From contig NC_009925.1 of NCBI RefSeq assembly GCF_000018105.1, positions 2,190,001 to 2,222,000 of the forward strand: a DNA stretch of 32,000 bases, written 5' to 3'. Shown here in pieces: positions 3,753-21,363 of the stretch. A model generated the notes under the pieces. That model saw only the letters and a list, made by a program, of their open reading frames with translations, ran no database searches and was not told the origin of the DNA. The position numbers and the translations under genes were made by a program. The stretch comes from Acaryochloris marina MBIC11017. GTDB taxonomy: Bacteria; Cyanobacteriota; Cyanobacteriia; Thermosynechococcales; Thermosynechococcaceae. Each line of letters starts with the position of its first letter. Position 1 is the stretch's first letter.

Positions 3753-4310
3753 ATGCAACTTCATCCCACAAAAATACCGGGCTGTTTTGAATTAGAACTA
3801 AACGTTTTCAAGGATCAGCGAGGTCGGTTTGTTAAAACGTTTCATGAAGAGATTTTTGCCAGTCACCAATTAGAAACTCACTTCCCTGAAGCCTATTACT
3901 CCTACTCCACTCAAAATGTGCTGCGAGGACTCCATTTTCAGATTCCCCCGAAGGATCATACGAAAATGGTGCACTGTGCCCAGGGAGAAATCGTTGATGC
4001 AGTGGTCGATTTAAGGGTGGGGTCACCCACCTATGGCCAATTTGAGGTGTTTGAACTTAGCGCTGAAAAAGGGAATTCGGCCTATATCCCTCCCGGCTTA
4101 GCCCATGGTTTTTACATTGTCAGTGAAACGGCTCTGGTGATGTATCAGGTGTCCACGGTATATGCCCCTGGCCATGAACAAGGTCTATTGTGGAACTCAG
4201 CTGAGATTCCCTGGCCCAGTACCAATCCGATTATTTCTGAAAAAGATCAAGGATGGAAGACCCTTGCCGACTATGAAAGCCCGTTTGTCTATGAGCCTGC
4301 CCACTCATGA
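3753..4310 (+). CDS. RmlC-like cupin, NDP-4-keto-6-deoxyhexose 3,5-epimerase family
   Basis: 185 aa with 'DQRGRFVKTF', 'LRGLHFQ' and 'KMVHCAQGEIVDAVVDLR', all typical of dTDP-4-dehydrorhamnose 3,5-epimerase-type cupins. The stop overlaps the next start (ATGA at 4307-4310). Confidence 0.8.
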   Translation: MQLHPTKIPGCFELELNVFKDQRGRFVKTFHEEIFASHQLETHFPEAYYSYSTQNVLRGLHFQIPPKDHTKMVHCAQGEIVDAVVDLRVGSPTYGQFEVFELSAEKGNSAYIPPGLAHGFYIVSETALVMYQVSTVYAPGHEQGLLWNSAEIPWPSTNPIISEKDQGWKTLADYESPFVYEPAHS

Positions 4311-15176: not shown

Positions 15177-16340
15177 ATGACAGAAAAATTGATTGAACAA
15201 GAAGCACCTAAACCGCGATTCTCTCTCCAAAGTCTATTTTTTGGTGCCCGTACGTCTAAAAGTTGGATGGCATCGCTGGATGGATTAAGGGGGATTGCGG
15301 TTCTCTTAGTGGTGGCAACCCATAGCAAGCGACTCCTGGGCCTACCTTGGGAGCAAATGTTCCTGGGGCATTATTTTCAGGCCGCAGGCACTATCTATGG
15401 CAGAACAGGGGTCTACATCTTTTTCATCTTAAGTAGCTTCCTGTTAACGAGCCACATGATGCGAGAGACGATTGAGCTTAAAAGCGCTAAAACCTGGATA
15501 AACTATGCTTTAAAACGATTTATACGCATATATCCGCTCTATCTTTTCGTTTTAGTCGTTTATTTAATTTTTCCGGGATTTAAGTTTGAACTGAAGGATC
15601 TAATATCCCATGTTCTACTACAAGAAGCGTTTAATCATTTTTGGACCATTGTCGTAGAGTTCAAATACTATTTGTTTTTCCCCTTCGTCGTGGGGATTAT
15701 TGTCCTGCTCTTCAAACGGGATTTTAAAGCGTCTACTCTCTTTTTACTCAGCGCCATTATCGTAACGGAGGGCGCTAATGTTGCGGTGGACTTCACGTCC
15801 AGATTATCCGTCCTCCCTCATATTCCGATTTTTCTGTTGGGCTCTTTGGCAGCCGTGGTCAATGCCAAGCTAACGGCGGTCTTTGACCCAGAAAATCCCA
15901 AACAGCGGCGATGGATGTCCATCCTGGCCAACACCTCCTTCGTGTTGATTGTGTTTAATTTTCCCAATCTAGTGAGTCGCCCCCTGTGGGATACCGTCTT
16001 TCAAGCCAACTATGTTCGTCTGTCCGCCAACCACGGGTTCTATACCTACCAAGCCATTCTGATCTGCGTTTTACTGGTGACCCATTTACATACGGATGGC
16101 TGGATCAAAAAAGTGTTAGAGAATGTGGCCCTGCGATTTGTAGGCATCGTTAGTTTTGGGGTATACCTCTGGCACATTGCAGTGCTCGGCTATTTGGAAT
16201 CTAAACTGAACGCCCCTGGCTATATCCAGTTTGCCAGTGTGTTCGTGGTGACCATCCTGTTGTCTGCGATCACGTATCTGTTATTTGAGAAACCTTTTAT
16301 GCGTATTAAACTTCGTCCCCAAATGATTAAGTCTTCCTAG
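15177..16340 (+). CDS. acyltransferase family 3 (AT3) O-acyltransferase, paralog of 12626-13714
   Basis: 'LDGLRGIAVLLVVATHS', and 'RIYPLYLF...Y...P.FK......SH.LLQE....FW.I.VEFKYYLF.P' aligns by eye with the first AT3. 'FGVYLWH' is present. The 3' end overlaps the convergent NACHT gene by 14 nt. Confidence 0.8.
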   Translation: MTEKLIEQEAPKPRFSLQSLFFGARTSKSWMASLDGLRGIAVLLVVATHSKRLLGLPWEQMFLGHYFQAAGTIYGRTGVYIFFILSSFLLTSHMMRETIELKSAKTWINYALKRFIRIYPLYLFVLVVYLIFPGFKFELKDLISHVLLQEAFNHFWTIVVEFKYYLFFPFVVGIIVLLFKRDFKASTLFLLSAIIVTEGANVAVDFTSRLSVLPHIPIFLLGSLAAVVNAKLTAVFDPENPKQRRWMSILANTSFVLIVFNFPNLVSRPLWDTVFQANYVRLSANHGFYTYQAILICVLLVTHLHTDGWIKKVLENVALRFVGIVSFGVYLWHIAVLGYLESKLNAPGYIQFASVFVVTILLSAITYLLFEKPFMRIKLRPQMIKSS

Positions 16341-19143
16341 GATCTTTAGGGTTCACCTTGATAGATGCACCCGCTTGCCAGAGGGCACGAAATTGCTCAA
16401 CGGATAATGCCTGGGACCAGTCCCACAGCAATTTGTAAACCGGCTGAGTCTGGGCCGACTGCTGAGATGTGATATATACCCCTTGAACCACAGTGAAAGC
16501 CTGTCGCCAGGTTGGGGACTCAGCATCCACCGTCATCAGACGGAGGTGTTTGCTGATCTGTTTGAGATGGTTTTTGCTCTGGGTTCTAGAGAAAATATCT
16601 AATAACACATCAATGGCCTCCCTATGGTGGGGCTGTATTGCCAAGAGCCGACCTGCATAGCGAATGCGAGTCTCCATCTTTCGGCTTTTCTGCAGTTTCT
16701 GTTCCAACACCTGAATAAGCTGTTGCGGCTTGAGGGGAGTTTTACGGGACCGACGATGTGAGTGCTTTACCGGTAGCGCTGAATGCTGAGGCGCCAATTT
16801 TTGCAAAGACTGTAGCGTTTGGTGACGGAGGGCAGGATCGTCAGTGAGTTGGAGGATATGTTCTAAAGTTTGGAGGGCCAAGGGTTGATCCGGTGCAATG
16901 ATACCCAGCCGATGGGCAGCCTTGCGACGCATCGCCAGAGAGTCATGGGACTGAATAATATCGTGTAAAGTTTGGAGGGCCTGGGGATGTCCCGGCTGAA
17001 TATCTGCAAGCGTCTTAGCCATCTCAATTTGCACATCGACGTTAGGCGCTTGGGTCAGCAGTTGTTCTAGGGTTGCGATCGCAACCCCATTCCCTGGATC
17101 ATAATTTTTGCCCAAGCTATGGGCCGCCAACCACTGCTCAAACGGATTCCGGGCATTTACCACAAACTGTTCAATGGCTTTGGTTACCAGGGTGCGATCG
17201 CTCTGGGACAACGCTTCCCCCGCAGGCTCAAGCCAAACAGTGGGTTTACCGTTCTGATGCTGAAATCGCCAATGGACCACCTCAGTGACTAACGCTTCTG
17301 AGCCAGCAAATTGGGGAAATTCTGCTAACCCCTTGGTCGCCAGCAGCTTCGCCTGGATATCGTAAAATCCACCACAGCCATCGGCAAAGTCTACCAGAGC
17401 TTGCAGAAACTGTACTTTATCCCCATCAGAAACGTCACTGCGCCCCAGCCATAGCAAGATCACTTCCTGCCATTGCCCACTAAAGATTGGGTGAAAGGTG
17501 GTTTCCGCTTGCTGATATTCAATAAACTGATGCAAATCTGCGATCGCTTGAGCTGCAAAATATTCCTGAAACGTGGCGTGATAAAAAGCGTAGACTTTAC
17601 CGCCTGTGGTGGGAGACCAGCCTGCGGGCTGTAGCCACCCTAACTGCAAGGCCAGAGTTAACTGATCAGGATCCAAATGTTGACTGATAAATATCACAGG
17701 TAGGCGAAACAATGGCGACGGTTGAGCCATTGCCTGCAACGCCAGGTGAGCTAGGGCTTGGTTGAGCTGCTGCCGCTGGGCCAAGCTGGTGGGGTGATGA
17801 TCCTGCTTCCAGTCGTAAAGGGCCTCGACAAACTGCCGATAGAGCATGGCCTTCGTTTCTGGCAATTGTTCTTGGGTGAGCTGCCAGGTTCGGCAGAGCA
17901 GAGCTAGGTGTAAGGGATTCTGAATCAGGGCTTTGAGTCGCCGCAGCTCGGGGCGATTAAGTTGGTGATACAGCGTATCGCCCGTTTGATCCTGAAACCA
18001 GTTTTGGATCACCGTTTGAACTTGATTTCCCCCTTGGCGATAGCTGAAGCTAAGGCTGCGATAGGGAGTGAAGGTTTCCAGAGCATTATGGCCCGCGTCC
18101 CAAAGTTGCGATCGCGAGGTCAGGATCACATGGGCCTCTCCCAGCCAGCCCTTGAGCTGCTTGGCTACAAAGGCCAACGCTTGGCTAGGCACCATCCCCA
18201 TTTCATCTACGGCATCCAGTAAAAGCCAGACCTTACCTGTAGCGAACTGCTGGGCAAAGGCTTGCTGCTGGCTTGGCGAAACGGTAAATACCTTCAGGGT
18301 TTGCTTGAGCCAAGTTTCTAGCAGGTATGTTTCTAGGGATTGACCCTCGAGATCGGCTAAAGAGATCCAAATCGGCAGCACCTGATCTTGGGCCAACAGT
18401 TTGAGAGCTAAGGTTTGCAACAGGGTCGTTTTGCCTGCCCCCGGTGGGCCAACGATGGCCACCCGCTGCACCGCTGATTGTGCCAGTAAAACCTCTAGAA
18501 ACTGATCAGGCTGATAGACCGTTGTCTCGGCGTCAGAATCACTGACTACATCCCCAGTTTGTTTAGCAACATCCGTTGGGTAGGCTACCAACCCCACCGG
18601 ACAATAGACATCTTTCAGGTCAAACGCCAATCCCGTATGGGCCGTCAGCGGATTAGTGGTTAGCCGAGTATCCAACGCCGCCTGACAGCAGGCTCTCCAG
18701 GGGCCTGCCTCTCTCTTCGGTTGGGATACCCCTCGATCCGGGCGCTGCTGATTCCAAACTTGGTCAAAGCTTTGCTGATTGGCTGCTTCTTCCCAGCGGT
18801 TATGGCACAGGGTCAAAGTGAAATGCCACTGATCCGACCCCCGCTGGCTGGTGCGGTGATCTTCCAGCATGCCCATAAAGGTTTGGAGATGTTTTAGCCC
18901 AGCTTTTACCTGCGCTAGGGTCAGCGGTGTCTCTAAATATTGGGTTAGGGCCACTAGATGCCGAGCCGTGGTCTGCACCACCAACCGCTGGTCCGTTTGC
19001 CAGTAGGTTTTGATCGTCCCCCGCAATCCTGCCAGGATCTTCTCGTCCTCAAGCTCTAGGGAATCATTGGCAAACTGCACCAAGCCCATCAGGAGGGTTT
19101 GGGTTCTGCGCCGGGTAATAGGGCCAAAACTTTGCTTGGGCAT
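16327..19143 (-). CDS. NACHT/STAND P-loop NTPase with C-terminal HEAT-type repeats and an uncharacterised N-terminal module
   Basis: Walker A 'VAIVGPPGAGKTTLLQTL', Walker B 'VWLLLDAVDEM' and the pre-NACHT 'LKDVYCPVGLV'. The C-terminus has repeated A..LG......A...L helical repeats (PBS-lyase HEAT-like). The ORF is 938 aa. Confidence 0.8.
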   Translation of the reverse strand: MPKQSFGPITRRRTQTLLMGLVQFANDSLELEDEKILAGLRGTIKTYWQTDQRLVVQTTARHLVALTQYLETPLTLAQVKAGLKHLQTFMGMLEDHRTSQRGSDQWHFTLTLCHNRWEEAANQQSFDQVWNQQRPDRGVSQPKREAGPWRACCQAALDTRLTTNPLTAHTGLAFDLKDVYCPVGLVAYPTDVAKQTGDVVSDSDAETTVYQPDQFLEVLLAQSAVQRVAIVGPPGAGKTTLLQTLALKLLAQDQVLPIWISLADLEGQSLETYLLETWLKQTLKVFTVSPSQQQAFAQQFATGKVWLLLDAVDEMGMVPSQALAFVAKQLKGWLGEAHVILTSRSQLWDAGHNALETFTPYRSLSFSYRQGGNQVQTVIQNWFQDQTGDTLYHQLNRPELRRLKALIQNPLHLALLCRTWQLTQEQLPETKAMLYRQFVEALYDWKQDHHPTSLAQRQQLNQALAHLALQAMAQPSPLFRLPVIFISQHLDPDQLTLALQLGWLQPAGWSPTTGGKVYAFYHATFQEYFAAQAIADLHQFIEYQQAETTFHPIFSGQWQEVILLWLGRSDVSDGDKVQFLQALVDFADGCGGFYDIQAKLLATKGLAEFPQFAGSEALVTEVVHWRFQHQNGKPTVWLEPAGEALSQSDRTLVTKAIEQFVVNARNPFEQWLAAHSLGKNYDPGNGVAIATLEQLLTQAPNVDVQIEMAKTLADIQPGHPQALQTLHDIIQSHDSLAMRRKAAHRLGIIAPDQPLALQTLEHILQLTDDPALRHQTLQSLQKLAPQHSALPVKHSHRRSRKTPLKPQQLIQVLEQKLQKSRKMETRIRYAGRLLAIQPHHREAIDVLLDIFSRTQSKNHLKQISKHLRLMTVDAESPTWRQAFTVVQGVYITSQQSAQTQPVYKLLWDWSQALSVEQFRALWQAGASIKVNPKDPRKT

Positions 19144-19317
19144 AGAGAACTTTCACGACAAAGTTAGGGGGTTCCCCTTAACTTAGATATCCCCCCTTAT
19201 TCTAGAACCCTAACCCTGTCCGCGTTTGACTCCAACTTTACGACATTGGAATCGGGGGAGAGACAGCCAGTAGATTAGGTTCAACGATAAGAAACGAGGT
19301 TACTTCAAGGCAAACAT

Positions 19318-19446
19318 GGACAGTTAGTTTAACGGTAGAACGTCTGTTATATGAATCTCCTGATTCACAACTTTATCCGTAAGGGTCGAAGAATTAGGGT
19401 TATCGCTAAGGAACAGAGGGTAGAGGTTCGAATCCTCTCCTGTCCA
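19318..19446 (+). ncRNA. tRNA-like RNA unit 1 (putative Y RNA / YrlA-like partner of Rsr)
   Basis: Acceptor GGACAGT/CCTGTCC (6 of 7 bp). D arm GTTT-AACGGTA-GAAC. Anticodon-position stem TCTGT(19343-47)/ACAGA(19413-17) enclosing a 65-nt insert. T arm AGAGG-TTCGAAT-CCTCT. No anticodon loop. Confidence 0.65.
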
Positions 19447-19458
19447 CACCACAGCCAC

Positions 19459-19580
19459 GGACGGATAGTTCAAAGGTAGAACGCCTTAACCCCCTTGTTC
19501 ATAACTTATCCGCAAGGGTCGAAGAATTAGGGTTATCGCCTATCATGCGGGAAATAGGGGTTCGAATCCCCTTCCGTCCA
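19459..19580 (+). ncRNA. tRNA-like RNA unit 2 (putative Y RNA / YrlA-like)
   Basis: Perfect 7-bp acceptor GGACGGA/TCCGTCC plus discriminator A. D arm GTTC-AAAGGTA-GAAC. T arm AGGGG-TTCGAAT-CCCCT. About 70 nt replaces the anticodon arm, including the conserved module 19506-19539. Confidence 0.65.
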
Positions 19581-19586
19581 TCCCCT

Positions 19587-19711
19587 GGAGTGGGTCGCTC
19601 AAACGGTAGAGCACCATTGATTGTCCGCAAGGGCCGCAGGAAATAAGGTTATCGCTTTTAACGACTTGTCCTTTATCCGTCGGGATGCGGGTTCGACTCC
19701 CGCTCCACTCC
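19587..19711 (+). ncRNA. tRNA-like RNA unit 3 (putative Y RNA / YrlA-like)
   Basis: Acceptor GAGTGGG/TCCACTC (one G-U pair). D arm GCTC-AAACGGTA-GAGC. T arm GCGGG-TTCGACT-CCCGC. The insert contains the conserved module 19621-19655 plus an extra ATCC-GTCG-GGAT hairpin. The unit ends about 55 nt before the rsr ATG. Confidence 0.65.
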
Positions 19712-19767
19712 CTTTCCCTATATGGGATTTTCAGCTTTTTTATTGCCCAGTCGGGCCGGAGATAATC

Positions 19768-21363
19768 ATGACTTACAAATTTTTTACCAACGCTCGTACC
19801 CCTCAGACCCATCCGATTCCTGGCCATGCAGCTGAAATGGTCCAAGGTCGATCTGGCGGCTACATGTTTGACCCAGGCATTTGGGGGATGCTGCGCCGAT
19901 GCCTACTGATCGGTACAGCTCAAAGCACCTACTATGCAGACAAGCATGAGTTAACCGATGACTTTATCCATGTCGTCCAGCAGTGTGTTTATGAGAATCC
20001 TCAGCGCACCGCTGAAGAGATTCTCTACGCTAGCGATGGCCGTTCCATCAACAACAGTGCGCCTATCTTGGCATTAGTGCTTTTATCCATGGGGGAAACC
20101 CAAATCGCCAAGCAGGCATTTGTAGAGCTATTCCCGCAAGTGGTGCGAACGGGTAGCCATTTCTACGAGTGGTTGAACTATACCAAGTCCTTACGGGGTT
20201 TCGGTAAAATCATTCGCCAGTGTGGAACCACATGGCTCTCTAATCCCGATGCCAAGGCCCTGGCCTATCAGTTGCTGAAGTACCAGCAGCGCCATGGCTT
20301 TACTCACCGGGATGCCTTACGGCTATTCCACGTCAAGCCCATCAGTGCCGATCACCAGGCCCTTTATCACTGGGTGACCCAGGGTTGGGAGACCTTACCT
20401 GAAAGCGCTCCTGACGCTTTAAAGCAAATTTGGTGGTACGAGCGGGTCAAGCGTCAGCCCGAGGCTACCCATGAGGCAATTATCCAAGGTCGCTTAACCC
20501 ACGAGATGATCGCCCCCATCGGTCAGATGGATCAGCGGGCTTGGCAGCTCCTCTTAGAGGGAATGCCTGTGGGAGCCTTATTGCGAAATCTAGGGTCTTT
20601 GACAGCACTAGGCGTTCTCGGAGCCCATAAGAGTAAGAACCTCAAGCGAGTGGCTGCGATGTTAACCAACAAGCAGCGCTTGCGCAAGGCTCGGATCCAT
20701 CCGATTGATGTGCTCAAAGCCTTGAAGACCTATGCGTCTGGGGGCCAGGTGGGGCGAAGTCGCAAGACTTGGACACCCATCGCCCGAGTCACCGATATTC
20801 TCGAAACGGCCCTTGAGCTATCTTTCGAGACAGTTGCCCCAACGGGCAAGGTGTTTATGCATGCCATCGATGTCTCAGGGTCGATGTCCTACTACACTGT
20901 GGGTTCGGTGGGCTTAAGCTGCTGCGAGATTGCCACGGCAATGGCCCTAGCAACGGCCAAAGCTGAGCGGAACTACGCGATTCGCGGGTTCTCAACCCAG
21001 TTCCGTGATTTGGGTATCACAGCCCGAGACAGCTTCCGCGATGCGCTCAAGAAGGCAACGGATAATAACTTCGGAGGCACTAATGCAGCGGTGGCCTACG
21101 AGTGGGCGATTCAGCATCACTTCTATGCCGATGTCTTCTGCTTCTGGACGGATTCTGAGTCCTATGCAGGGCGACAGCATCCGAGTCAGGCTTTAGCGGA
21201 GTATCGACGTCTAGTGAATCCAAAGGCTAAGGCGGTTTACGTGACTCTAGCCCCTTACCAGCTCTCCTTAGTGGATCCTAAGGATCCATTATCCTGGGAC
21301 TTCGGTGGTTTCGACCCCGCTGCCCCACGAGCCATCCAAATGATTGCTCAAGGAGAGATCTAA
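19768..21363 (+). CDS. rsr: Ro60-related protein Rsr (TROVE domain plus C-terminal vWA domain)
   Basis: 'PQTHPIPG....V.GRSGGYMFD...W..L.R.L.IG....TYY' and 'DGRS.NN.P.L.ALV' match the Ro/TROVE N-terminus. The C-terminal vWA has the MIDAS motif 'AIDVSGSMS'. GGAG lies 6 nt upstream of the ATG at 19768. The track start at 19621 runs through tRNA-like unit 3 and is rejected. Confidence 0.9.
   Translation: MTYKFFTNARTPQTHPIPGHAAEMVQGRSGGYMFDPGIWGMLRRCLLIGTAQSTYYADKHELTDDFIHVVQQCVYENPQRTAEEILYASDGRSINNSAPILALVLLSMGETQIAKQAFVELFPQVVRTGSHFYEWLNYTKSLRGFGKIIRQCGTTWLSNPDAKALAYQLLKYQQRHGFTHRDALRLFHVKPISADHQALYHWVTQGWETLPESAPDALKQIWWYERVKRQPEATHEAIIQGRLTHEMIAPIGQMDQRAWQLLLEGMPVGALLRNLGSLTALGVLGAHKSKNLKRVAAMLTNKQRLRKARIHPIDVLKALKTYASGGQVGRSRKTWTPIARVTDILETALELSFETVAPTGKVFMHAIDVSGSMSYYTVGSVGLSCCEIATAMALATAKAERNYAIRGFSTQFRDLGITARDSFRDALKKATDNNFGGTNAAVAYEWAIQHHFYADVFCFWTDSESYAGRQHPSQALAEYRRLVNPKAKAVYVTLAPYQLSLVDPKDPLSWDFGGFDPAAPRAIQMIAQGEI

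Follow-up and report, generated by a model that had tools for sequence, protein, structure and literature searches.

Tandem tRNA-like units upstream of rsr in Acaryochloris marina carry a candidate Rsr-binding arm related to that of YrlA RNAs

The bacterial Y RNAs of the YrlA type are defined by a motif, GNCGAAN0-1G, that lies close to the 5' end and was proposed as the site for Rsr (the bacterial Ro60 orthologue) and likened to vertebrate GGUCCGA, and they further share a conserved YUAY as well as T, D, acceptor-like (AS) and V stem-loops (Chen et al. 2014). In the same study only the 5' strand was conserved across bacteria, and the YrlA of M. smegmatis could be cleaved by RNase P and accepted CCA (Chen et al. 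2014). For cyanobacterial YrlAs, the published text describes a much longer acceptor stem. The Ro site of vertebrate Y RNAs consists of a helix in which a single C is bulged and the opposite strand carries a bulge as well, and this bulged helix is needed for Ro binding (PMC4726728), while a 2025 study of a Thermus phage Ro60 placed CGAA within a stem-bulge-stem, of which a minimal hairpin mimic was bound with a dissociation constant (KD) of 16.6 nM (PMC12135203). Ro60/Rsr and the bacterial Y RNAs are still poorly understood, the effector of the YrlA tRNA-like domain is unknown, and our literature search on cyanobacterial Ro/Y RNA found nothing beyond Chen et al. (2014) and Wang et al. (2018). 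Here we analyzed a stretch of 32,000 nucleotides of the Acaryochloris marina MBIC11017 genome (NC_009925.1, positions 2,190,001 to 2,222,000; hereafter the window), in which three tandem transfer RNA (tRNA)-like units stand upstream of rsr, each of them carrying a copy of a ~34-nt block (the module). We propose, with a probability of roughly 0.7, that this module is the Rsr (Ro60)-binding arm, or Y arm, of a tRNA-like Y RNA homologous to YrlA.

All three copies of the block that the original prediction had reported were recovered with identical coordinates and sequences (Table 1), and the window holds three copies of their core, YCCGYAAGGGYCGMAG, where 100 shuffles gave an expectation of 0.00. 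The association of the module with rsr was analyzed in 80 cyanobacterial rsr loci, in which Rsr is 69–97% identical to the query. The module pattern (the hairpin, followed by xG...RRGRTTAYC) was present in 277 copies on the rsr strand and in a single, spurious one on the opposite strand, with arrays of 1 to 7 units located upstream of rsr and sharing its strand. For the reverse search, metagenome contigs were scanned for CGAMGAATNAGGGTTATCG, resulting in 62 loci. In 41 of these, a relative of rsr follows downstream in the same orientation. The 21 loci without rsr comprised 17 chance matches (no hairpin or tRNA-like context), three true modules on contigs that were too short, and one contig (L128) deemed chimeric because a truncated MNYK... 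open reading frame adjoins there an apparent organellar ATP-synthase gene, recognized by eye only. A widespread occurrence of the module away from rsr was thus not seen, as no complete module with enough flanking DNA lacked rsr among the 80 genome and 62 metagenome loci. Viral contigs gave no match to the module pattern.

For the comparative analysis of the structure, 51 units (each < 88% identical to the others, units 1 and 2 of the window included) were aligned with MAFFT in a structure-blind manner (alignment A1), and pairing was evaluated with RNAalifold and by pair counting. Over the whole structure 94.8% of the cells were paired, against 42–52% when the partners were slid by 1–3 columns. 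The hairpins ATCC-GTAA-GGGT, ATCC-GCAA-GGGT and GTCC-GCAA-GGGC, noted earlier from the window alone, are present, and the replacement of A-U by G-C in unit 3 is a genuine compensatory change. In the homologous stems 96.6% of the cells were paired and 4/4 pairs covaried, with changes on both sides; GCCU/AGGC, GCCC/GGGC, AUCC/GGGU, ACCC/GGGU, GUCU/AGAC and GCUU/AAGC were among the stems observed. A GNRA loop was present in 208 of the 277 copies (75%) and a UUCG loop in 14, with varied loops in the remainder, so the loop is likelier to be a stable cap than a sequence signal. By comparison, the immediate neighbors of the stem are near-invariant (U84 and U85 on the 5' side, and C99, G100 and A101 on the 3' side, in 49–51 of the 51 units). 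Together they form a bulged helix that consists of the 4-bp stem, a single bulged C (49/51) and then U.G and U-A pairs, and the minimum-free-energy fold of unit 1 contains it as well (CUUUAUCC/GGGU(C)GAAG, with the C bulged). We also considered a hairpin lengthened by CUU/AAG around a 2-nt CG bulge. This was ruled out, as column 102 holds A or C and faces an invariant U, and the single-C bulge with U.G and U-A was preferred.

The same data bear on the possibility that the units are decaying tRNA genes or pseudogenes with a functionless repeated insertion, such as an intron remnant or a mobile repeat. The Rfam tRNA model (RF00005) does match the units: unit 1 reaches 45.9 bits (gathering 29), though only with a 64-nt insert, and at the gathering score 20 units from 16 loci were reported as tRNA and none as YrlA, while at a permissive threshold there were, in the window, tRNA matches, one weak YrlA match and otherwise chance-level ones. 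The drift of the "anticodon" triplets would fit decay too. However, compensatory changes preserve the hairpin as well as the acceptor and T stems across genomes with ~70% identical Rsr, the strand bias is 277 to 1, the position beside rsr is fixed, and the inserts are far below the size of group I introns; ARAGORN, moreover, found no tRNA and no transfer-messenger RNA in the 32-kb window. We consider decay scarcely credible, and on these grounds the intron or mobile-repeat reading was ruled out.

Beyond the hairpin, the Y arm continues into a CGAA-containing 1 x 5 asymmetric internal loop (M opposite AYNNC), which separates the bulged helix from a long helix of 8–10 bp formed by a conserved CCUUGUUC-type strand and GAAU.GAGG (AUCCUUGUUC / GAAU(U)GAGGGU; 92% paired and mostly invariant in the 51 units). 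The sequences flanking the block had been described as unrelated, which does not hold, as units 1 and 2 share a CCU(U)GNUUC strand 5' of the block that pairs with GAAUUAGG(G) inside it; the corresponding partner strand of unit 3 is found 3' of the block. At the 3' end of the block, UUAUCG provides the 5' strand of a small anticodon-like hairpin (UCGN-loop-N'CGR), the closing pair of which covaries (C-G 22, A-U 12, U-A 3) and which matches the stem-loop of YrlA named V by Chen et al. (2014). This hairpin occupies columns 117-137 of alignment A1. Its loop has 7 nt in 35 of the 51 representative units; all 35 of these have U at position 2 as well as a purine at position 6, and 32 have a pyrimidine at position 1. 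Judged by this pattern (Y-U-NNN-R-N), the small hairpin bears the signature of an anticodon arm. The "anticodon" triplets drift freely (UCC, UAG, GAU, GCA, CUU ...), and AGGUC and the T arm come after the hairpin. The Y arm (~50 nt) splits the D arm from the anticodon-like hairpin, and there is no canonical contiguous anticodon arm. In most members (class A, such as unit 2) the insert is located between the D arm and the anticodon-like arm, and not within an anticodon loop.

As a control, the Ro locus of mycobacteriophage ScottMcG (L143) was used, the YrlA of which scores 36.1 bits in its tRNA-like core with the Rfam YrlA model and is also under the gathering score. This RNA reads GGGGAGGCAGGCCGAGAGUUUGUCGGUUACCUC-AUUGCAA-GAGAGAGGUC-T arm-closed AS-D arm-GCGCUUAAAC...CUGCCUCCCC, with the order AGGCCGA-N9-GGUUACC-stem/7-nt loop/stem-AGGUC-T arm. 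In the cyanobacterial units the sequence runs ...AGGCCGAAGAAUGAGGGUUAUCGCC-CUUCCAA-GCGGGAGGUC-T arm and, past the D arm, GCGCCUAAAACAUCCUUGUUCA...CUUGCCU. Given this shared order of elements (AGGCCGA-N8-9-GGUUAYC-arm-AGGUC-T arm), the cyanobacterial units are collinear with the ScottMcG YrlA, with the block as the homolog of the proposed Rsr-binding 5' domain and the hairpin as the counterpart of the YrlA terminal helix. Units 1 and 2 carry GUCGAAG, which fits GNCGAAN0-1G, and UUAU, which fits YUAY; unit 3 deviates (GCCGCAGG). By homology the units are YrlA-type bacterial Y RNAs, yet they fail both the YrlA topology and the Rfam threshold.

It is improbable that the module binds a partner other than Rsr (PNPase, a tRNA-processing or a repair enzyme) or that it acts as a tertiary-folding element of the tRNA-like body. 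Such roles would be compatible with the modularity of Y RNAs, with a YrlA effector site that is unknown in the literature, and with the ability of GNRA loops to dock into receptors, but in motif and order the module agrees with the domain of YrlA that is proposed to bind Rsr rather than with the tRNA-like effector domain, GNRA can be replaced by UUCG or other loops, and a copy of the hairpin on the rsr Shine-Dalgarno sequence is best explained by the gene's own product.

This copy is located in the rsr leader, which reads UU-GCCC-AGUC-GGGC-C-GGAG-AUAAUC-AUG (19743-19770), GGAG being the Shine-Dalgarno sequence 6 nt 5' of the AUG at 19768, and the Shine-Dalgarno purines occupy the position of the module's GAAG. 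With a strict rule, the leader pattern (UU, 4-bp stem, C or U, G(G)GAG) was found in 77 of 81 genome loci, where it typically ends 14 nt 5' of the start codon, and in the metagenome loci it was detected in 35/41 by regular expression and in 39/41 by eye. Over these loci the element is placed about 14–30 nt 5' of the rsr start. Its stem shows compensatory changes of its own (GCCC/GGGC, GCCU/AGGC, UCCC/GGGA, GUCC/GGGC, GCCG/CGGC and GCCA/UGGC). Since the leader carries the hairpin and its flanks only, with no long helix and no GGUUAUC, we argue that the hairpin with its bulged C may itself be a recognized unit. The overlap with the Shine-Dalgarno sequence suggests autoregulation, in which translation of rsr would be repressed when Rsr is free of Y RNA; we regard this as possible, at somewhat less than even odds. 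Alternatively, the leader hairpin could stabilize the 5' end of an mRNA freed by processing of the last unit, or could be a purely structural element of translation. No report of Ro60 autoregulation via such a ribosome-binding-site copy was found in the literature examined.

The leader also helps to weigh the idea that the hairpin is a structural clamp that closes the Y arm, and that Rsr reads the CGAA loop together with the long helix and GGGUUAUC, without contact to the hairpin. A clamp would account for the free loop sequence and for the variation of the stem through compensatory changes, and it would agree with the different sequence of the equivalent terminal helix in canonical YrlA and with the conservation of the 5' strand only (Chen et al. 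2014). It would account less well for the near-invariant UU, bulged C and GA beside the stem, for a leader that copies exactly the hairpin and its flanks, and for the vertebrate case, where the bulged helix itself is needed for Ro binding (PMC4726728). We judge the clamp unlikely, at something like one chance in a few, and prefer the hairpin as part of the Rsr site.

Which ends of the RNA are open was analyzed with a frame test, in which units were set by the D- and T-arm motifs alone and the 94 D arms flanked by a T arm on both sides were considered. In 83 cases the better partner of the 5' acceptor strand is the downstream 3' strand, that of its own unit, and in 4 cases it is that of the upstream unit, with a mean of 6.17 Watson-Crick pairs in cis versus 3.68 in trans. 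In the alignment, 7/7 pairs of the acceptor stem covary in cis, and there is support, with covariation, for both the D stem and the T stem. The spacers between units vary in length (7 to 146 nt) and show no conservation, and loci with a single complete unit exist (L010, L011, L026). As the acceptor stems pair within the unit, the Y stem would be closed and the acceptor stem open; the units are very probably tRNA-framed, with the Y stem closed by the tetraloop hairpin. In relation to YrlA this arrangement is a predicted circular permutation, and in relation to Yrn1 of Deinococcus a third arrangement.

The opposite view would be that the functional RNAs are canonical YrlAs that extend across the unit junctions, from the module to the next CCUUGUUC strand, with a path of module, T arm, long closed "acceptor" stem-loop (two neighboring half-stems and the spacer) and D arm, and with a hairpin that is terminal or serves in processing. 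In this frame the Rfam YrlA model aligns at 19396-19511 (27.3 bits), 6 pairs are possible at the junction of units 1 and 2 in the window, and the cyanobacterial YrlAs were published with much longer acceptor stems, which is the outcome expected from reading a tandem array across its junctions. On the pairing counts (83 vs. 4) we reject this frame, and the covariation of the acceptor in cis, the variable and unconserved spacers, the lack of a partner unit in the one-unit loci, the first D arm and the last T arm that it leaves orphan in each array, and the short covarying tetraloop hairpin that links both Y-stem strands in cis all argue against it as well. We therefore see little prospect for RNAs of this form. 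With free acceptor ends, the units would be open to cleavage by RNase P, to 3' processing and possibly to the addition of CCA, and their processing by tRNA enzymes is plausible because the M. smegmatis YrlA is cut by RNase P and receives CCA.

The three units of the window differ in connectivity. Class A (unit 2) runs from the D arm through the CCCUUGUUC strand, the hairpin, CGAA, the GAAUUAGGG strand, UUAU and the anticodon-like arm to the T arm, and the comparative model of unit 2 reaches -34.2 kcal/mol versus a minimum free energy of -38.2 kcal/mol. In class B (unit 3), for which 14 units were aligned (alignment A2), the D arm is followed directly by the hairpin, a purine-rich strand, the anticodon-like hairpin as a cap, a CCUUU... 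strand, GYCGRGAU and the T arm. The long helix of class B is made of the strands in reverse order relative to class A and it covaries (columns 57-95: A-U 6, U-A 5, C-G 1; columns 61-89: G-C 7, A-U 6). Unit 1 has a 5-bp UCUGU/ACAGA stem that encloses the whole arm and no small hairpin. Classes A and B can be described as one predicted rod (hairpin, CGAA, long helix, UU, anticodon-like hairpin) with different attachment points on the tRNA body, from which recognition of the Ro site appears to tolerate circular permutation. A fourth hairpin, ATCC-GTCG-GGAT at 19675-19686, had been related to the three others. It is present in the window sequence but is not conserved in the 14 homologous units, where 67.9% of the cells are paired versus 65.9% in shuffles (125 of 500 shuffles equal it). 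It appears in the single-sequence minimum-free-energy fold of unit 3, its 5' arm belongs to the long helix, and it possibly forms in Acaryochloris itself. The fourth copy that is conserved is the leader hairpin at 19745-19756.

Some variants of the units were observed in passing. In unit 1, a lineage-specific 6-bp hairpin can form at 19353-19367 (UGAAUC-UCCU-GAUUCA), which competes with the long helix and could be an alternative conformer or a product of chance; a different 6-bp hairpin (UGCUGU...ACAGCA) lies a few bases away in an Acaryochloris relative (L001, 2081-2105), and the 138-nt units of Nostocales have a separate additional hairpin at the equivalent place. Many Nostocales loci (L009, L013, L015, L018, L019, L024 and others) carry an extra unit ~50 nt past the rsr stop, at approximately positions 4150-4265. 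This unit is without a D arm, its acceptor GGCGGGU leading directly into UAUCCUUGUUCGCAACUU-GCCU-UUCG-GGGC-CGAAGAAUUUAGGGUUAUCGG, a hairpin, a T arm and ACCCGCC, and it resembles a pared-down form of the units described above; none of this type is present in the window.

A resemblance to human hY1 had been proposed in the original prediction, with the hairpin string UCCG.AAGG set against UCCGAAGG. That register was not upheld, as the best ungapped one begins 8 nt further downstream in 45–48 of 53 units, and there GGGUCGAAG...GGGUUAUC is set against GGUCCGAAG...GAGUUAUC. In this register GGUCCGA of human Y1/Y4 falls on GGGUCGA/AGGCCGA, and G(A/G)GUUAUC on GGGUUAUC. The 5' strings of human Y1 and Y4 that were used for the comparison occur in published papers. 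We take the likeness of the units to human Y1/Y4 as suggestive. The Rfam Y_RNA model (RF00019) gave no match in 19150-19800 at E values up to 10. In the ScottMcG locus, a second Y-like RNA lies at 1340-1425 between YrlA and the phage Ro gene, and its GGAGGCCGAAGGCUCGUCGGUUAUCAAC is close to GGUCCGAAGGUAGUGAGUUAUCUC of human Y1, so a signature GGYCCGAAG-N-GGUUAUC would be common to actinophage, cyanobacterial and vertebrate Y RNAs.

Several results weigh against the module as a YrlA-homologous Rsr site. The junction-spanning match to the Rfam YrlA model (RF02553) in the window is far below the gathering score of 69, and the long helix is near-invariant in class A, with little covariation. The match to Y1/Y4 amounts to 13.8 of 24 positions, compared with 11.7 +/- 1.1 in shuffles (~2 standard deviations). 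The comparative models of units 1 and 3 lie at about -15 kcal/mol, versus minimum free energies of -36 and -40 kcal/mol, lineage-specific hairpins compete with the model (UGAAUC/GAUUCA in unit 1, AUCC/GGAU in unit 3), and the single-sequence folding z-scores are weak (-1.45 to -1.72). In unit 3, GCAGG replaces GAAG and the long helix is degenerate. Finally, a scan of 19100-19800 found no sigma-70-type promoter and no intrinsic terminator. With these points included, the earlier suggestion of a candidate Rsr-binding element is partly supported, on other grounds and in another register than those first given: linkage to rsr, the CGAA motif, collinearity with YrlA and a bulged-C helix that may be the analog of the vertebrate one speak for it, whereas the hY1 register fell away and the stem-bulge-stem is larger than had been claimed.

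In the mechanism that we propose, the array would be transcribed along with rsr or just ahead of it, and would be cut into units of ~125 nt by the tRNA-processing enzymes (RNase P and a 3' nuclease). Rsr would bind the stem-bulge-stem of the Y arm, the bulged helix of which would be the counterpart of the terminal "lower stem" of other Y RNAs, closed by a tetraloop instead of ending in termini. The tRNA-like body would recruit an effector, as in other Ro-Y RNA particles, and free Rsr would repress its own translation via the partial copy of its binding site on the rsr Shine-Dalgarno sequence. Taken as a whole, i.e., arrays of circularly permuted YrlA-type RNAs with free acceptor ends together with self-regulation of Rsr through a Y-RNA-mimic hairpin for which the Y RNAs compete, this picture is tentative and we would give it about one chance in three. 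If the units are built in this way, the open acceptor stem and the hairpin-closed Ro site would offer a compact substrate of ~45 nt for binding and structural work, and the question is raised whether the units receive CCA or meet tRNA-binding factors. The conserved copy on the ribosome-binding site is a testable candidate for Ro60 autoregulation, and the permuted topology would account for the small number of cyanobacterial members detected by covariance models that derive from the YrlAs of proteobacteria and actinobacteria.

The features of the locus are compiled in Table 1. The rsr open reading frame starts 56 bases 3' of unit 3 on the shared strand, and its product aligns end to end with Xenopus Ro60 (1YVP, E 5e-73) and with Deinococcus Rsr (2NVO, E 6e-72). 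Among public loci, the nearest comes from an Acaryochloris metagenome-assembled genome, with an Rsr identity of 97%.

Table 1. Positions in the window of the tRNA-like units, their Y-arm elements, the leader hairpin and rsr.
Feature	Positions	Strand	Description	Basis
tRNA-like unit 1	19318..19446	+	acceptor stem, D arm, 5-bp UCUGU/ACAGA stem around Y arm, T arm	
Long helix of unit 1, 5' strand	19359..19366	+	CCUGAUUC; pairs with GAAUUAGG at 19391-19398, 8/8	
Module copy 1	19373..19406	+	UU 19373-74; hairpin 19375-19386 (AUCC-GUAA-GGGU); bulged C 19387; CGAA 19387-19390; GAAUUAGG 19391-19398; UUAU 19400-19403	
tRNA-like unit 2 (class A)	19459..19580	+	acceptor stem, D arm, Y arm, anticodon-like arm, AAAUA, T arm	alignment A1, RNAalifold
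Long helix of unit 2, 5' strand	19492..19500	+	CCCUUGUUC; pairs with GAAUUAGGG at 19524-19532, 8/9	
Module copy 2	19506..19539	+	hairpin 19508-19519 (AUCC-GCAA-GGGU); bulged C 19520; CGAA 19520-19523	
Anticodon-like hairpin of unit 2	19536..19550	+	UCGC-CUAUCAU-GCGG; 7-nt loop, U at position 2, purine at 6	
tRNA-like unit 3 (class B)	19588..19711	+		alignment A2, RNAalifold on 14 class-B units
Module copy 3	19621..19655	+	hairpin 19623-19634 (GUCC-GCAA-GGGC); bulged C 19635; degenerate GCAGG replacing GAAG; GGAAAUAAGG 19639-19648	
Anticodon-like hairpin of unit 3	19652..19664	+	UCG-CUUUUAA-CGA; columns 67-69 with 79-81	
Long helix of unit 3, 3' strand	19670..19678	+	CCUUUAUCC; pairs 55-58 with 94-97 covary; overlaps the "fourth hairpin" 19675-19686	
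Module-like leader hairpin	19743..19761	+	UU-GCCC-AGUC-GGGC-C-GGAG; tetraloop hairpin 19745-19756	
rsr (Ro60 orthologue)	19768..21363	+	531 aa; Pfam Ro60 vWA 123.8 bits, TROVE 65.5 bits	

Upstream of the array, the divergent neighbor (16327-19143, - strand) encodes a STAND NTPase of 938 aa with EAD4-NACHT-HEAT architecture. Homologs with 42–94% identity over the first 400 aa occupy the same divergent position in seven loci (L001, L002, L003, L010, L011, L020, L026), and none was present in the fetched flanks of the other 73, which are mostly from Nostocales; a functional link of this protein to Rsr and the Y RNAs is possible. The divergent intergenic region carries an inverted repeat at 19157-19220 (GACAAAGTTAGGG / CCCTAACCCTGTC; 13 nt, 85% complementary, 38 nt between), and strings similar to it (CAAAGTT.GGG...CCCC...TAACT and TATTCTAAA) were observed in the Leptolyngbya-type loci L010, L011, L020 and L026. 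This region may be a shared promoter or operator; a simple sigma-70 scan gave no match there. Between unit 3 and the leader hairpin (19714-19741), a small hairpin (UCCC-UAUA-UGGGA) followed by UUUUCAGCUUUUUU is below the criteria of the terminator scan, and L003 and L016 have CCCC-GUUU-GGGG at this place. It may be a weak terminator or attenuator that separates the Y RNA array from rsr.

Among the described systems, YrlA (RF02553; Chen et al. 2014, Wang et al. 2018) resembles the units in being a same-strand neighbor of rsr within ~4 kb, in its tRNA-like T and D arms, in the 5'-3' order of GGCCGA / GNCGAA, helix strand, YUAY (UUAU), small stem-loop, AGGUC and T arm, and in the GCGCYUAAA(A)C past the D arm with the complementary helix strand after it. 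It differs in that its Rsr-binding stem is made of the RNA's own 5' and 3' termini and its acceptor-like stem is closed by a loop, the opposite of what the units are predicted to have, and the units occur in tandem arrays of 1 to 7 with class A and class B isoforms. Yrn1 of Deinococcus radiodurans is likewise an Rsr-bound Y RNA, partially tRNA-like, with a T arm and D-loop-like elements in tRNA order. There, however, the acceptor stem gives way to the Rsr-binding stem, and the D and T elements are separated by a closed "anticodon arm", whereas here the acceptor stem would be open and the Rsr-type stem an internal closed arm. Yrl1/Yrl2 of Thermus phage phiLo share with the units a position upstream of the Ro60 gene and CGAA in a stem-bulge-stem (PMC12135203), but they are described as stems in which the 5' and 3' ends pair, with no mention of a tRNA-like body, and the hairpin form that is an engineered probe there would be natural here. 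In the vertebrate Y RNAs (hY1, hY4; RF00019), the proposed Ro site has a single bulged C followed by G.U and A-U pairs and a bulge on the opposite strand, of which the 4-bp stem, bulged C, U.G and U-A pairs and 1 x 5 internal loop of the units may be the analog. The strand GGGUCGAAG-N7-GGGUUAUC of the units resembles GGUCCGAAG/GGUCCGAUG-N7-GAGUUAUC/GGGUUAUC with equal spacing. In contrast to them, the stem of the units is not built from the termini, with 4 bp and a tetraloop above the bulged C where the vertebrate RNAs have ~8 bp ending in termini, and the units lack the U-tail of RNA polymerase III transcripts and carry a tRNA-like body.

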